Assembly: GCA_023205875.1 (NCBI GenBank)
Contig: CP060758.1
Coordinates: forward strand, 806,001-870,000
Direction of reading: 5' to 3'
Length of the DNA: 64,000 nt
Source: Chloropicon primus
Lineage: Eukaryota
Shown here: one piece after another, positions 12,761 through 18,811 of the stretch
How the letters are laid out: each line of letters begins with the position of its first letter
Numbering within the stretch: the stretch's first letter is position 1
Program-made: the position numbers and the translations under genes
The notes under the pieces: model-generated
Database searches by the model: none
What the model saw: the letters and a program-made list of their open reading frames with translations, nothing else
What the model was told of the DNA's origin: nothing

Positions 12761-12774
12761 AATTACGATTACAT
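12761..12774 (+). repeat. Left copy of 14-bp target-site duplication AATTACGATTACAT
   Basis: Identical to 16282-16295. Confidence 0.9.
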
Positions 12775-12784
12775 AGTACATCAG

Positions 12785-13315
12785 ATTAGCAAATGAATCC
12801 TCGTGTGATCGCTGGTGAGAGCGATCACACTCATGACGCTACCCGCAGGGCTTCACCAGGGCTTCGCCCTAGCTTCGGCCTGCGCTGCGTCTACGTTGCT
12901 TCTCATCATTTGATTACACGATACCATCACGCAAAAGTTACCCCGGAGGGTTACTCCCATCAGGTACCTTCGATTGTATTCTATGCGGCCCTCCACCAGC
13001 GAATCGAAACGCCTTTTTGAATGGAAGGTGACACTTCCATCCAATGTAGAGAGCCATCCGGACTACTCTCACTCCGAAGGGGAAGGAGCTGCCCCGAGTG
13101 TAAAACACTTTCATGCAGGCGTGTCGGAGCTCACCCCGGCGGTGGCGAGGCTTGGTTGGTTGGCTGTTTCAGAATCAAGAGTCTTGAAACATGTAGGCAC
13201 GCAAGGCTACTCCTTTCATCGTCCACAACCAATCACCCCGCCGATACCAGGGACTGTCGAGCTCGCACGCTCTTTGAGTCTTCGAGCTGTGGCCTCGACT
13301 ATGGGGGCGCGTTCA
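12785..13315. ncRNA. Putative large structured RNA at the 5' end of the Fanzor element (family unknown, strand uncertain)
   Basis: Consecutive stems: CAAATGA/TCATTTG, GTGTGATCGC/GCGATCACAC, GACGC..CGCAGG/CCTGCG..GCGTC, TTCGATT/AATCGAA, ATGGAAG/CTTCCAT, GAGAG/CTCTC, CACTC/GAGTG, GTTTCA/TGAAAC, GTCGAG/CTCGAC; no credible ORF. Confidence 0.5.
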
Positions 13316-13449
13316 CTTAAAAAAGAAACACAAGGAAACAAAAAACGAGAACGCAAGCCCCTCTCAGTCTCGACTAATCAAGCGCAGCTTCTTCATCATG
13401 GCTGGGCACACCATGGTGATGGGCACACGGCGTCGCCAAGGGAAGTGCT

Positions 13450-13509
13450 GGTCGCTCGGGCAGGCCGGTCGCTCGGGCAGGCCGGTCGCTCGGGCAAGCG
13501 ACCGGCCTG
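13450..13509. repeat. 17-bp tandem repeat (GGTCGCTCGGGCAGGCC x~2.8) ending in a perfect 13-bp hairpin
   Basis: Units at 13450, 13467, 13484; CAGGCCGGTCGCT (13478-13490) pairs with AGCGACCGGCCTG (13497-13509). Confidence 0.9.
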
Positions 13510-13580
13510 GTGCGACGACGGACGTTCACAACTGAGGGTGAGGGTCGTGGTCTCCGATGACACTTTCAAAATTTCCACGA

Positions 13581-13638
13581 CCACAGCCACAACCACAGCC
13601 ACAGCCACAGCCACAGCCACAGCCACAGCCACAGCCAC
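13581..13638. repeat. (CCACAG)n microsatellite upstream of Fanzor
   Basis: Visible hexamer run with one variant unit. Confidence 0.9.
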
Positions 13639-13729
13639 AACATCAAAAAAAGAGAGGAGAGGAGAGGAGAGGAGAGAGGGGGGGAGGGAGGGGGGCTGGG
13701 CACTTCCACATTAACTCTACTTCGACACC

Positions 13730-15796
13730 ATGACCTCCGACGGCCCTTCGACCTCACGTCCTACTGCCAAGCGTCTACGTGGTTCGCGTTCTCCTCGCCG
13801 ATCCCATTCAAAGAGGAGGAAGGGGAAGAAGGAGAAGGAGAAGGAGAAGAAGGGGAAGAAGAAAAAAATTTTTAGGGCGTATAAGATCGGTCTCCATTCA
13901 GCTCTCCAGCCCAGGTTGCGGGACAGCCTTGGGGTCGAATTGGAGGATGCCTCAAGAAGAATGGGGGTGATAAACCATCTCGGGACGGTGTTGATGGCCC
14001 TCCACCATGCTCGTCGGCTTGGGGAACTGCCCGGGGCTTCTGCTGATCTCGAAACCTTTCACCGTCGGTGCGGAGAGATGGTGACTGAGCTCAATCAACT
14101 CAGGGCTGAGCGGGAGGGGGGGCCGGTGGCGGACATCCAACTCCTCAAGAGGGTTTGGAGGTGTGTTCCAGCGATGGATCGGGTTTCGATAGGTCACTAC
14201 CTCCGCACCGTCTCCCACACGCCCAATTCGAGGGAACCAACGTCACAGGAACCAACGTCACAGGAGTGGAGATTGCTCCAGGCATCCATGGCGGCGTTGG
14301 TTCAGGCCGCCACAGCTGCCGAGACCTCTCTGCGTCTGCGTCTGCCATCGCGGGCGCTCCTGTCGCATGTCATCACGGAAGCTGCACTAGTTCTCAGGAC
14401 GAATTGGTCAAACTTCCTCAAGTACGGGACCTTCAATCACATGAAGCAATACCTGAGAGCAAAGTACCAACTGAACAAATCCGAGGCTGCCGCTCTCCGA
14501 GCAGCCCTTTTGAGCGAGTCGCAGCCCCGGAGACCCGACCTCGTCCAACACTACCACAACGAGCTGGCCCTCGTTCAGGGCTTTGGCGTTGCAGACTTTA
14601 TGCACGGCACCGACAACGTTCTCGACCCCGCGGAGCAAGAGAGAAACATGGTCGTGTTCAGGTATATGATGCTCAAAACGGTAGAGGCCTCGGACCTTCC
14701 GATCAAGCGTTTCACTCTGGTGCCTGTCTGCCGGGTGCAGTATCCAATGATCAATGTCTCGCGATCTTGCCTGAAACTCTGGGGCTATGATGGTGGCCGT
14801 GGGTGGGAGAAGATTTTCACCAAGAAGGTGAACAACATCGCCAAGAAGGGCCACACGAATGGACGTACCAAGGCATTCGCTAGGCACTTTCGAACCGATG
14901 GCCTCAGCGTCGTGGTCGTTGTCGAAGAGGTGATCCTCGCTCGTCCCGACAACAACTATATAGGCCAAGGGGAGCGGTGTGCCACCAAGCCTTCTCAGTT
15001 CGATCCCCGGAACACCGTGGGCGTTGATCCCGGCCGAATTTTTGTCGTCTACGCGAACATTCTGGAGAGGGGGAGGAAGAGGACCTTTTCTCTTCACCTC
15101 TCCGCTTACCGCGACCGCTGTGGTTTCACGAAGAGGAATATTTTGGCACACCAGTGGCTGAGCAGAGCCCCCAACAATCTCCAACAGAGATTGAACGACC
15201 GCGCCATTTCTCTGAAGCTCACAAGTGTAGATCGCCTCCAGGCGGCGATTGGGACCCGGCTCACCTTCCTCTCCAACGCCATCGATTTTTTGGGGCAACG
15301 GCGCTGGCGTCGAAAAGGGTTGGAGACTTTTGGGCGAAAGCAGCGAACTATGGAGTTCATAGCAAGCAAACTCTTCCCGACGGCGTCACACATCGTCTTC
15401 TACGGAGCCGCAAACTTCCCCTCTGGCATCAGGGGACGCCCTCCCGGGCCTTGCATCGGGCTCAAAAGGTTTTTGGTGACGAAGACCACACCAGGGAGAT
15501 TCTTCTTCGTCGATGAATACAACACCTCCAAGATGTGCGCAGCATGCTCTCAGAAGAACATCTCCACTGCGCTGCGGAGAGTGCACAAGAGTGATAGAAG
15601 CCGAGGAAACGGACCACCATCAAAGAAGGGACGTCCCCAGTACGGAGTTTTGTCCTGCCCCAAATGCAGTATGGAAGTGCCCCGCGACGATAACGGCTCG
15701 GACAACATCCTCGCCATCGCCAGTGCTTTCCTCCATGCACAAAATTGGTCTGTCCCACGCGAGATTTGGCCGCCAGCGCTGCGACGCCCTCTGTAG
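13730..15796 (+). CDS. Fanzor1 (eukaryotic TnpB-like RNA-guided DNA endonuclease), 688 aa, intronless
   Basis: RuvC-I VGVDPG (D433), RuvC-II VDEYNTSK (E596) adjacent to CAAC, CPKC zinc finger, RuvC-III RDDNGSDNI (D653); Fanzor1-type FTLVP, RTDGLSV and VFYGAANF segments; basic NLS-like N-terminus. Confidence 0.9.
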   Translation: MTSDGPSTSRPTAKRLRGSRSPRRSHSKRRKGKKEKEKEKKGKKKKIFRAYKIGLHSALQPRLRDSLGVELEDASRRMGVINHLGTVLMALHHARRLGELPGASADLETFHRRCGEMVTELNQLRAEREGGPVADIQLLKRVWRCVPAMDRVSIGHYLRTVSHTPNSREPTSQEPTSQEWRLLQASMAALVQAATAAETSLRLRLPSRALLSHVITEAALVLRTNWSNFLKYGTFNHMKQYLRAKYQLNKSEAAALRAALLSESQPRRPDLVQHYHNELALVQGFGVADFMHGTDNVLDPAEQERNMVVFRYMMLKTVEASDLPIKRFTLVPVCRVQYPMINVSRSCLKLWGYDGGRGWEKIFTKKVNNIAKKGHTNGRTKAFARHFRTDGLSVVVVVEEVILARPDNNYIGQGERCATKPSQFDPRNTVGVDPGRIFVVYANILERGRKRTFSLHLSAYRDRCGFTKRNILAHQWLSRAPNNLQQRLNDRAISLKLTSVDRLQAAIGTRLTFLSNAIDFLGQRRWRRKGLETFGRKQRTMEFIASKLFPTASHIVFYGAANFPSGIRGRPPGPCIGLKRFLVTKTTPGRFFFVDEYNTSKMCAACSQKNISTALRRVHKSDRSRGNGPPSKKGRPQYGVLSCPKCSMEVPRDDNGSDNILAIASAFLHAQNWSVPREIWPPALRRPL

Positions 15797-15880
15797 CGGC
15801 AAGGGCTATGGATCCAGGTTGAAACCAAGCAGGACACTGGATAAGATCTTTCTTGAGATCGAGGAGGACGTGGGAGGCCC
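15786..15880 (+). ncRNA. Putative Fanzor omegaRNA: scaffold ~15786-15860, guide from ~15861
   Basis: Stems GCCCT/AGGGC, ATCCAG/CTGGAT enclosing GGT-TGAA-ACC, and GATCT/AGATC directly 3' of the ORF, where Fanzor/TnpB omegaRNAs lie; host-gene homology starts right after the last stem. Confidence 0.6.
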
Positions 15881-16261
15881 AAGCACAGGACGTCGGGGCA
15901 TTCCAAACGAGTCCGGACAGCACCACGAGCTCATCCATCGGACCGGCAGGGCTATCCTCGTAGTTCGCGTAGTAGAAGCCTCCCAGTGTGTACCCGTTCA
16001 ACTCCACCAGAGGCATCTCCTGCACGACGACGGCAAGCGCGTCCCATCCCATCCCATCATCCAAGCGTCCGTACACAGAGTGAGAGAGTGCGTGCGTGTG
16101 CGTGCGTGTGTGTGTGTGGGGGGGGGAGTCAGTTCAGTTCAGTCCATGGTGAGTGCGACAGGAAGGTTTGCTTGTTGGGAACTTACCGGAGGGACGTATT
16201 GGCGAGCGACAGAGGACTTGACGAGGTGGAACTGATAGTGCGCGGACCCCCTGAACGTCCA
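15861..16261 (-). pseudogene. Fragment of NEOXANTHIN-DEFICIENT 1-like gene, truncated at both ends, intron 16020-16186 retained
   Basis: Spliced translation WTFRGSAHYQFHLVKSSVARQYVPPEMPLVELNGYTLGGFYYANYEDSPAGPMDELVVLSGLVWNAPTSCAWASHVL matches the NXD1 N-terminal half; in-frame stop and no ATG upstream; C-terminal half not found in the window. Confidence 0.8.
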
Positions 16262-16281
16262 ACAACCCTCCCGGGAACGTC

Positions 16282-16295
16282 AATTACGATTACAT
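16282..16295 (+). repeat. Right copy of 14-bp target-site duplication; contains the TGTAA poly(A) signal (minus strand) of the Rab3GAP gene
   Basis: AATTACGATTACAT identical to 12761-12774; abuts the TAA stop at 16295-16297. Confidence 0.9.
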
Positions 16296-18811
16296 TAGAC
16301 GGTTACAATGGAAGCGAAACGTGTCATGCTCTGGTCGAGGTCTTGGGAGAGGTAGGTGTACAACAAGGGCAAGTCCTCGGGGCCTTGGGCCTCGCCGGCG
16401 GAGGTGAACAGTTGGACCACCTGCTTGCGGAGGTGAAGGAGCATCACGCTGTCAGAGCTTTCTTCCTGCCTTCGGAAGCTTTCGCCGAAACTGAAGGAGG
16501 AGTGAAAGGGGTCCGAGAGGCTCAGCTCCAGGGTCGGGCCGTTGGAGAACTCCTTTGTGACCAGTTTGTTGACGAAGGCGTCGACAAGGAAGGCCTTGAC
16601 GTCCCCCGAAAGGAAGACCAGCTTCTGGACCACGCTCTCGGCGAAGGATATGGAGACTTCCAGCAGGTGGAGGTCGAGGCAGAGGATCGTGGCCTCCTCG
16701 TCCTTCGCGAGGTCTGAAGTCGCCAGCTTCTTCGGCAACTTCGCCACCCAGTCTTGGACGCTCTCTTTGACGCTCGAGACGAGATCTGCGATAGGCTTCA
16801 GCTCCAGGTTCCTGCTCGCTCTGAGGGTGTTCACACAATTGGACAAGCCCAGGCAGTAGAGCGACTTGAACAACTCGAGGGGGGCCACGTGCTCGAGCCA
16901 GTCCAGGGCCATCTCGGCTCTGCTGCAGAGAACGCTTTCTGCCAACCCCCCCTCGGAGTGGTCCTCTTCCTCTTGGGCGCTCGCCAAGTCATTCCACACG
17001 TCTTTCAGCCTGTCCTTGGTGAAATTGTTCCACGCAAGAGATTTGCAGAGCTTTGAGAACTCGTCGAAATACCTCGAGGACCGAAAGTGCTTCTTGAAGT
17101 CACCAAAGGACACCCCGTCCTTGGCCCTCCTGAAGGACCTTGCCATCTTCCTCGCCGCAACCCCGTGCATCTTGATCCAGACCTCTTTCTTGTTCTTCTT
17201 GTTCGAGGTCGTGGTGAACATGTAGTCATACTCACCGACGAGGTCCGAGGTGAGCATGCTCGGGTTCGAATCACCCGAGTCATTTCCCACCAAGTCGTTC
17301 GCGCTCAGGGTGCCGCCGCTCCTCAGCCCCAGAATGCAGAGCTGGATCAGCTGCACCTTCTGCTCGATGACTTGGCACGAATGGTCGATGCCCGCAAAGC
17401 CAACCATTCTCGGCAGGAGCTCCCGCTCCTCCCAGTACCCGAGCCTAATCCCCGAAATAAACCGCTTCCACAGCAAGGAGATCGCCCTTGGGTTGTCGCC
17501 ATAAGACAGGGCGTACATGGACAGGTACCCCACGAGGTTGTCCACGGGGAGGCTGTGGAGGTCGTTCTCGAGCCCCCCGAAGTTCTGCGTGACGTGAGCC
17601 CTCCGGTTGAAGATGGACTCGACCTGAGTCTCCAAAAGATTCTTCGAGGGTATCTGAGGGACCTGCGAGTATTGGTCCCAAAATGAATCCTGGGACAACT
17701 GGCTGACCCCCTTGGCCCTCTCGACCAGCTGAAAGGTGGAGTGAAAGGCGGACACCATTTGAGCAAAAAAGTAGCCACCGCTTGACTTCTTCATGGTATC
17801 CATCACATTCCTGTGCCACATGACGTCCGAGAGCACTTCGTCTTTGAGCTCGAGCTTCAAGCAGGCCTCGCCCACCGCGTCAAGGGCACTCAGAGACGAG
17901 AGCTCAAAACTCTTCACGGACTGGGAAGATCCGCTGGACCCACCCGCGCGTTGGAATGAATCGAGATCGGTCTGCACATCAGAGCAGCGGAGGTTGTCCC
18001 ACGATATTCCCAGCCTTATCCCGGCGATTGGATCTTCGTATTCTGCCCAAGGGTACCAGGGGCAAGCAGCGTTCCAGTCGTCAATCCAGATGCACATGTC
18101 GGACTCTGACTCCGGGAGGGTCCAAGTGAGTTCGAACTCTCTCGTCACACTCGCGCTCGTGCTCGCGGCCTGCCCTGCCCCCCCCGCGGCGGCGGCTCCC
18201 CGCCCCCTCTCCACGACCGATCCCGCCCTGGACTCGGAGTGGTAGCCTTCCACGACCGACAGCGGAGGCATCTCAGCTGCCTTGAGTCTTCCCGTGATAC
18301 AGTCCGTTTGCAACCGCGCCACGTGGCCCCCTGGCCTCAGGTGCACGCCTTCGAAGGACCTCCTCTGCCTGTCTCTCATCGGTATGAGCAGCGGGTGGGG
18401 GAACTTCAAGCTCGTCGCGGACGTGGACAGAGCCGACAAGAGCGCCACGCCCTCCTCCTTATCGAGAACGCAGCCCGAAAACGAGTTCGGGTAAAGCAGC
18501 ACGAAGGGCTCCCCCTCCCCCAAGGCAAGCCACTTGGACAGGTAGTGGTCCATGGGAGGGTAGTGCAAGGCCACGCTGTACTTCTCCGGCCGGAACTGCG
18601 GCAGCTTCGCTTCCAGGACCCACACATGAACCTGGTCCCCCTCGTTGTTTTCGATGACTTGGCTCGGCGATGCTGCAGCGGGAAAGTCTCTCAAACCTTC
18701 TCCGTCCTCCTGGGCCTTCTTCCATTCGCGAAGCTTGGCCTCCACCTCCGCACAGAACGCCTCCCACGCCGTCGCGGTCGTGTAGTCCAGGAACCCGTCC
18801 TCATCCTCCAT
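16295..18811 (-). CDS. RAB3GAP1: Rab3 GTPase-activating protein catalytic subunit-like
   Basis: N-terminal DYTTATAWEAFCAEVE, NPRAISLLWKRFI..WE and IDHSCQVIEQKVQLIQLCI segments. Confidence 0.7.
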   Translation of the reverse strand: MEDEDGFLDYTTATAWEAFCAEVEAKLREWKKAQEDGEGLRDFPAAASPSQVIENNEGDQVHVWVLEAKLPQFRPEKYSVALHYPPMDHYLSKWLALGEGEPFVLLYPNSFSGCVLDKEEGVALLSALSTSATSLKFPHPLLIPMRDRQRRSFEGVHLRPGGHVARLQTDCITGRLKAAEMPPLSVVEGYHSESRAGSVVERGRGAAAAGGAGQAASTSASVTREFELTWTLPESESDMCIWIDDWNAACPWYPWAEYEDPIAGIRLGISWDNLRCSDVQTDLDSFQRAGGSSGSSQSVKSFELSSLSALDAVGEACLKLELKDEVLSDVMWHRNVMDTMKKSSGGYFFAQMVSAFHSTFQLVERAKGVSQLSQDSFWDQYSQVPQIPSKNLLETQVESIFNRRAHVTQNFGGLENDLHSLPVDNLVGYLSMYALSYGDNPRAISLLWKRFISGIRLGYWEERELLPRMVGFAGIDHSCQVIEQKVQLIQLCILGLRSGGTLSANDLVGNDSGDSNPSMLTSDLVGEYDYMFTTTSNKKNKKEVWIKMHGVAARKMARSFRRAKDGVSFGDFKKHFRSSRYFDEFSKLCKSLAWNNFTKDRLKDVWNDLASAQEEEDHSEGGLAESVLCSRAEMALDWLEHVAPLELFKSLYCLGLSNCVNTLRASRNLELKPIADLVSSVKESVQDWVAKLPKKLATSDLAKDEEATILCLDLHLLEVSISFAESVVQKLVFLSGDVKAFLVDAFVNKLVTKEFSNGPTLELSLSDPFHSSFSFGESFRRQEESSDSVMLLHLRKQVVQLFTSAGEAQGPEDLPLLYTYLSQDLDQSMTRFASIVTV

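Follow-up and report, generated by a model that had tools for sequence, protein, structure and literature searches.

How a piece of a host carotenoid-pathway gene came to lie directly behind a Fanzor nuclease gene, possibly at the position from which such an element would read its guide, and whether it now points the nuclease at that gene, are the questions raised by an insertion in Chloropicon primus (assembly GCA_023205875.1, contig CP060758.1). The window, to which all coordinates below refer, is the whole stretch of DNA analysed, 64,000 nucleotides long. Other copies of the element were followed through annotated proteins, a published orthogroup list and the contigs of four runs (X1, X3, X4 and X5), X4 and X5 being treated as RNA because both show the NXD1 splice, although X5 is labelled 'DNA?'. 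The insert of 3.5 kb (12775–16281) lies between a DEAD-box helicase gene and a gene for an 890-aa protein, both on the minus strand, and its features and borders are as follows.

12761–12774, no strand: left copy of a 14-bp direct repeat, a likely target-site duplication (repeat search)
12775–12989, plus strand: left terminal region, common to other repeat copies and to sister elements (loose ends at 12786, 12797, 12835 and 12989; high depth)
13478–13509, plus strand: second perfect hairpin, 13 bp, within 17-bp tandem repeats (repeat and hairpin search)
13730–15796, plus strand: Fanzor1 open reading frame, 688 aa when counted from its first ATG, against 572 aa in the annotation (P0062) (open reading frame list, motifs, profile, fold)
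15791–15868, plus strand: candidate omega-RNA scaffold with three predicted stem-loops, at 15791–15811 (7 bp), 15812–15842 and 15847–15868 (fold prediction)
15858–15872, no strand: junction patch, where the element matches NXD1 at 13 of 15 bases, perfectly over 15867–15872, and behind which other copies leave the window sequence (host and Fanzor contigs, proteins)
15867–16019, minus strand: fragment of NXD1 exon 2, codons 40–90 (protein match; no differing letter over 15867–16072 in X1 and X3)
16020–16186, minus strand: NXD1 intron, 167 nt, GT..AG (splice joint in X4 and X5)
16187–16279, minus strand: fragment of NXD1 exon 1, codons 9–39, start codon missing (100% over 31 aa; the host match stops at 16279)
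16280–16281, no strand: two extra bases between the NXD1 fragment and the repeat (window letters against the host loose end)
16282–16295, no strand: right copy of the repeat, which borders immediately on the stop codon of the minus-strand gene for the 890-aa protein (repeat search)

The 14-bp repeat occurs only twice in the window, is expected by chance with a probability of about 4e-5 (two 100-base zones), and encloses both the Fanzor gene and the NXD1 fragment, in agreement with the initial annotation, which had placed the fragment inside a target-site duplication. Its left copy contains on the minus strand a TGTAA motif, which we take to be the green-algal poly(A) signal. Near the left terminus of the element lies a perfect 11-bp hairpin (12803–12830; z −3.9 for the 90-nt window at 12805), which has the same inner five pairs and the same 6-nt loop size as the hairpin at 13478–13509. 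Between the two ends of this copy, no terminal inverted repeats were seen among the 25 longest of 81 inverted pairs or by self-BLAST, and an asymmetric inverted repeat was likewise not found, no second copy of the hairpin arm being present inside this copy, which is without the other tail described below. Pfam gave no match in the two left-part open reading frames scanned. The depth over 13094–13231 corresponds to about 8–10 copies, against 5.6 for the Fanzor gene; the left part may thus have shorter relatives. The unique left-flank contig stops at 12791 in X1 and X3, which would reflect either an allelic difference at 12792 or a further locus where the start of the element is preceded by 13 of the 14 repeat bases; in this second case, part of the 'duplication' travels with the element. 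The piece 12880–12989 also belongs to a much deeper RNA contig (depth 250, X4), which leaves the window sequence behind 12989 and whose printed letters extend the ATG at 12983 with no stop over ten codons. This contig likely represents a sister element that shares the left end and may be the one coding for the transposase.

By its sequence, the product of 13730–15796 is a Fanzor1, closer to Fanzor1 than to Fanzor2 or TnpB. The reading frame contains the Pfam TNB domain, and VDPG, DEYNTS, CAAC/CPKC and RD are all present, giving an intact RuvC D/E/D triad with a rearranged glutamate and an intact C4 zinc finger; FRTDG, the TDG motif of the WED domain, is intact as well. Across 81 sequences, G443 and E480 are invariant and D317, C490, C527 and R536 nearly so. 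The best profile matches are SpuFz1 (E-value 4.7e-65), PpFz1 (1.5e-56) and GtFz1 (1.1e-52), a mimivirus Fanzor2 following at 7.4e-11, and the same three Fanzor1 proteins are the best fold matches (TM 0.55–0.69; ranks 1–7 of the fold search are all Fanzor1), while a single-sequence search of solved structures gave no match. Identity to the solved SpuFz1, PpFz1 and GtFz1 (PDB 8GKH, 9CF0 and 9CER; described in PMC10432273 and PMC11423790) is only 12–15%; near-identical proteins are labelled Chloropicon primus. The open reading frame runs 116 codons upstream of the annotated start (13730–14077), and a lysine/arginine-rich stretch in this extension looks like a nuclear localisation signal. Metagenome contigs yielded seven distant loci (24–37% identity) and none of the C. 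primus Fanzor1 family. Two peptide motifs of the family had no hit in the supplement of PMC10711439, and the family had none in that of PMC10530073 and did not appear in the accessible part of a 2026 review; it would be an addition to the Fanzor sets searched, though supplements of bioRxiv preprints and element-end alignments in figures may list it. The distant TnpB/Fanzor2-like loci L003–L006 share a 3′ region that stops sharply about 135 nt behind the stop codon; it has no similarity to the 3′ region studied here, and the loci are too distant to set the element end.

The DNA behind this gene comes from NXD1. With its 54-aa piece as query, all 57 candidates scored E ≤ 0.001, many of them being named NEOXANTHIN-DEFICIENT 1, and the best full-length match is a C. 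primus protein of 256 aa (P0061), on which PF06314 scores above its cut-off; P0061 is thus identified as NXD1 by plant and algal homology and would have an ADC-like fold. In plants, loss of NXD1 is described as preventing neoxanthin synthesis, and its biochemical role as unknown (PMC8151144). The insert holds 82 of the 256 codons, antisense to the Fanzor gene, in a cargo of 413 bases. The initial annotation had seen antisense NXD1 with its intron from 15861 to 16281, lacking the start codon and the C-terminal half. The fragment and its intron are real over 15867–16279; at the near end, NXD1 differs at 15863 and 15866 and the bases through 15872 also occur in copies without NXD1, and at the far end 16280–16281 are extra bases beyond the host match. 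The first eight codons are indeed absent, and the missing part amounts to about two thirds of the protein rather than its C-terminal half.

The exact skip of the 167-nt intron is seen in two of the four runs (X4 and X5), and a processed retrocopy of NXD1 was rejected, as the intron is kept in the insert. Intact NXD1 proteins are known from chromosome 3 of two strains (P0061 and P0002), and the NXD1 contigs of X4 and X5 are unbroken and spliced; NXD1 elsewhere is intact and transcribed. The remaining parts of the gene are absent from the window (tblastn). Simple disruption of a sole NXD1 locus, the outcome named in the initial annotation as incompatible with its reading, is thereby rejected: an intact gene elsewhere, together with a second copy that carries a longer NXD1 piece, indicates the capture of a host-gene copy that travels with the element, as had been proposed. 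Between fragment and host gene there is no differing letter over 15867–16072 and 16144–16279 (the repeat 16073–16143 was skipped), whereas 1.8 kb of Fanzor sequence shows 14 differing letters and 24 gap letters; the capture is therefore recent.

Several transcripts and annotations touch this region. X4 and X5 hold a deep intron-containing path (88 against 155 spliced, and 1025 against 550, respectively) that touches 16020–16072, and P0002 starts at an ATG inside the NXD1 intron; NXD1 may have a second transcript form. The annotation calls a fusion protein made of the NXD1 piece and an antisense Fanzor frame (15462–16133; P0001 and P0060), which databases name NXD1. It is probably not a real protein; a search with the antisense open reading frame found only this fusion cluster (1 of 87 candidates). 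A contig of X4 (16250–16700) runs from the 890-aa gene into the NXD1 piece and, since the insert lies directly behind the stop codon of that gene, its transcript probably reads into the insert; such read-through would probably be NXD1-sense and antisense to Fanzor, the contigs themselves being strandless.

How the two parts were joined can be read from the junction. Host contigs (X4 no. 23 and X5 no. 31) align to the window from 15858 with two differing letters, which F91-V92 in P0061 against L-L in P0060 places at 15863 and 15866. Such 13-of-15 homology between element and gene has a probability of about 9e-7 at a given joint, and about 32 such sites are expected in a genome of C. primus size, so that a free end can find one. 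In the DNA run X3, the shared Fanzor contig (5.6 times single-copy depth) stops at 15872 and the shared NXD1 contig starts at 15867, as it does in X1. The joint must therefore exist in the read graph, and contigs from X1, X3 and X4 run across the right junction; an assembly artefact was rejected. A 33-base junction pattern was found neither in viral contigs nor in prokaryotic genomes. All copies are alike through 15872, including those without NXD1. Because an ordinary insertion needs no likeness between its target and the element end, whereas a template switch or end invasion does, the patch favours a joint made by homology.

Comparison of the 3′ cargo across copies, which the initial annotation had suggested, divided the family. 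Two copies carry NXD1, and about four of six have a different tail in common, at least 142 nt long, here called the other tail. Behind 15872, a single other continuation appears in X1, X3 and X4 among the loose ends listed, with a median of 142 letters in X3 and X4 and 13 in X1; the Fanzor contigs of X4 and X5 show 142 further letters of it. Additional continuations may exist beyond these loose ends. By bin arithmetic under an assumed host depth, the Fanzor body amounts to 5.6 single-copy units in X1 and X3, and the X3 bins, a rough measure that assumes a host depth of 109–175, give 4.2–5.1 units for the other tail and 1.2–2.1 for the bridge into NXD1, which agrees with four loci of the first kind and two of the second. 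No contig crosses the joint in X4 or X5, where the depth adds up without one, and their Fanzor contigs show the other tail as well as alleles different from those of the window. Because rare forms are lost from contigs, and a small RNA would not appear in them, this absence of an RNA bridge counts little. The published orthogroup OG0000062 (PMC12301720 supplement) lists 11 Fanzor open reading frames at six loci in one strain and four in the other, none of them on chromosome 3, and the fusion orthogroup of the same supplement holds two NXD1-fusion open reading frames; neighbouring gene numbers there added nothing. OG0000062 has entries on chromosomes 4 and 17 for just one of the strains, and these may be recent insertions or annotation gaps. 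The second chimera lies on chromosome 2, where P0060 (A3770_02p12230) is the same fusion of NXD1 with antisense Fanzor and begins at the true NXD1 start codon. The gene next to it is a Fanzor of the same family (P0065), which is frameshifted in both strains (P0065 and P0215) and shares with the window copy several residues that other copies lack. The two fusions and these common residues indicate that the chimera arose once and was then copied with different right ends.

We favour, with somewhat better than even confidence, the explanation that the 5′ third of NXD1 was joined antisense to Fanzor1 by a microhomology-primed template switch and has since been a passenger, probably inert toward NXD1. 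It starts from a multicopy Fanzor1 element of which about four of six copies bear one shared tail behind 15872. A broken or copying strand ending within 15858–15872 would then have annealed to NXD1 and copied toward the 5′ end of the gene, replacing the tail; the inclusion of the intron places this event at the DNA level. Later copying of the chimera, seen at two loci, would have kept to one left end while the right end varied, leaving a longer NXD1 piece on chromosome 2 and, in the window, a shorter one with two filler bases and the 14-bp duplication. Finally, the swap would most likely have cost the element its true right end and, with it, the omega-RNA in part or in whole. Alternatively, the scaffold would survive at 15791–15870 and NXD1 probably be without a TAM; in either case NXD1 is intact and expressed. 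Some points count against this explanation: the stop codon lies 76 nt from the point of divergence, close to the 75 nt described for the scaffold behind the SpuFz1 stop (PMC10432273), the fold resembles that of solved Fanzor1 RNAs, and the other tail could itself be an inherited flank. Nor was a Helitron2 asymmetric repeat found in the element, and the fixed end of the CRe elements discussed below is the 3′ end, whereas here it is the left end, 5′ of the Fanzor gene.

The choice between these outcomes depends on where the scaffold ends. Characterised Fanzor RNAs are described as abutting the right end of the element (PMC10530073), the small RNA of Cre-1 as starting about 100 bases behind the last exon and running to the element end (PMC10312701), and the first stem-loop of solved Fanzor1 RNAs as 7 bp long (PMC11423790). 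In the chimera, the predicted fold ends 1–4 nt before the point of divergence. The last scaffold hairpin had been placed with its end at 15860; a hairpin ending there is predicted (−4.6 kcal/mol; pair probability 0.55 if the folded sequence stops at 15872), but a stronger competitor (−8.1) spans 15847–15868. Rfam gave two weak matches far below the cut-offs, none of them at the 3′ end. The 30 letters seen of the other tail paired with the candidate scaffold no better than most controls did, 43 of 60 control windows reaching the same level or a higher one, so nothing shows the other tail to be scaffold. We nevertheless give slightly better than even credence to a scaffold lying in the lost tail, with the element end at least 142 nt further, that is at least 218 nt behind the stop codon, in which case the chimera lost its RNA end. 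A scaffold at 15791–15870, as modelled from the fold, is somewhat less probable than that; all copies would then carry inherited guides, and the window copy would read NXD1.

On this modelled scaffold rests the most serious competing explanation, possible yet doubtful in our judgement, namely that the guide was swapped: the scaffold would occupy 15791 to about 15870, every copy would carry an inherited 3′ flank, which is NXD1 in two of them, a guide starting anywhere from 15869 to 15873 would match perfectly, and the joint would have arisen when the element's own end invaded NXD1. The 76 nt from stop codon to divergence, near the SpuFz1 value, fits it, as do the three stem-loops with a first one of 7 bp, an optional 8-bp closing helix ending at 15871, and the intact nuclease motifs of the window copy. 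In Replitron-1, one end of a copy retains flank from the parental site and the duplications vary, and the two chimeras are proof that even long flanks can be moved. The fold itself is unremarkable against shuffles (z −1.5; 36 of 113 end positions score as low, and 23 of 113 have such a closing helix), and every other copy must have kept at least 142 nt of one flank. Any base change in the TAM abolished cleavage by SpuFz1, and no motif is common to the left flank of the insertion and the bases that precede the NXD1 match on its 5′ side; if the joint was not an ordinary insertion, we would see no reason for a TAM at NXD1. A swapped guide lacking a TAM would mean that the RNA is made but does not act. 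Nothing was found for homing, allele conversion or repression of NXD1, the outcomes proposed at first, and the host target is identical over the stretches compared (15867–16072 and 16144–16279). The fragment is thus probably inert cargo toward NXD1, and action of the Fanzor on the gene is improbable. Equally improbable is a full natural guide swap, in which guides are inherited and a homology event at the scaffold end gave an intact nuclease a perfect carotenoid-gene guide, with binding or cutting in trans. In the literature, subscription papers and figures excepted, no Fanzor guide taken from a captured host gene was found.

We hold it unlikely that the chimera was moved by retrotransposition of a minus-strand transcript from the NXD1 promoter, 5′-truncated and inserted with two untemplated bases and a 14-bp duplication. 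Target-primed reverse transcription fits variable ends, untemplated bases and duplications, and the right end of the insert is variable, its left end fixed, with two extra bases and 14 duplicated base pairs. Against it, the intron is kept, the left junction is without a poly(A) or simple-repeat tail, and the joint between element and gene is left unexplained.

The initial annotation had proposed an ordinary earlier insertion into NXD1, with the element ending at 15860, its flank carried along by 3′ transduction and a guide from 15861 driving homing or conversion. That the fragment is genomic DNA with an intron, lies at two loci in different lengths and follows a hairpin that does end at 15860 agrees with this proposal, which we consider very improbable. 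The bases 15861–15872 are common to copies without NXD1, about four of six copies carry the other tail, none of the 11 listed family members lies on chromosome 3, and the NXD1 proteins of both strains are intact. Granting a 6-base target motif, the further match of seven of nine bases in the 13-of-15 patch has a P of 0.0013. The guide fares no better: from 15861 it mismatches NXD1 at positions 3 and 6, and it matches fully only from 15867 or later, while tested Fanzor1 is described as tolerating most single mismatches, position 3 being the sole one that cut activity (PMC11423790). That a family guide near 15858–15861 hit the near-match in NXD1 and cut it, repair from the element then copying NXD1 into the guide position, is just as remote, since despite the homology patch directly behind the candidate scaffold and the mismatch tolerance of tested Fanzor1 (PMC11423790), there are two mismatches, one at about position 3, the match stops after 12–15 bases, a TAM lacks support and the stronger hairpin sequesters 15860–15868.

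The closest parallels come from another green alga. CRe-1/2/3 of Chlamydomonas reinhardtii (CrFNuc; non-autonomous Helitron2; PMC3627910, PMC10530073, PMC10312701) are described as one-ended, with truncated copies that have 7–19 bp duplications and extra captured sequence (Bao and Jurka, PMC3627910). As in C. primus, they pair a green-algal Fanzor1 without a transposase with one fixed and one variable end, a duplication in whose range the 14 bp fall, captured DNA inside the duplication, and a first stretch of about 200 bases common to sister elements. Unlike in CRe, the variable end here is 3′ of the Fanzor gene, so that cargo lands at the RNA end; there is no TTTT before the repeat (the four bases preceding the left copy are TTGA, outside the T-rich motifs listed for Helitron2 in PMC3627910), no empty site was seen, no asymmetric repeat was found, the Fanzor gene is intronless and the cargo is 413 bases of a host gene. 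In the assay reported for it, CrFNuc showed no RNA-guided, TAM-dependent DNA cleavage (PMC10530073). Replitron-1 of C. reinhardtii is described as bringing along, at one end of each new copy, a stretch of parental flank that differs in length, and as having variable duplications (PMC10288648, PMC9977147); its right ends coincide with rearrangement breakpoints, a likeness to the fuzzy end here, whereas its carried flank is described as short and without a Fanzor, and no terminal direct repeat or Rep gene is evident in our element. By analogy, the C. primus element may work like CRe or Replitron-1 copies. Less similar is SPu-1, described as having terminal inverted repeats and as taking its guide from the local, variable flank. 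The published Fanzor2* of C. primus itself (PMC10711439; bioRxiv 10.1101/2023.08.09.552727) is likewise non-autonomous and codes only for a Fanzor, but belongs to another protein family (none of the nine Chloropicon supplement rows is this protein) and has terminal inverted repeats and 5-nt duplications; identity with it was rejected, as it is a different, Fanzor2-type family.

TldRs are bacterial, domesticated TnpB repressors that are nuclease-dead and whose fixed guides target host genes. An NXD1 guide, if the guide reading were true, would work in their manner, with the differences that the nuclease motifs here are intact and that the target would be coding sequence.

The native-genome targets of eukaryotic Fanzors are largely open, and this family, with six copies and two kinds of 3′ end in an alga that is small and can be cultured, offers a ready test between local flank, inherited flank and NXD1 as the source of the guide. 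If the favoured explanation is true, this locus would show neatly how a Fanzor element captures a gene fragment, and the one-ended, long-duplication pattern of Chlamydomonas would extend to another class of green algae.
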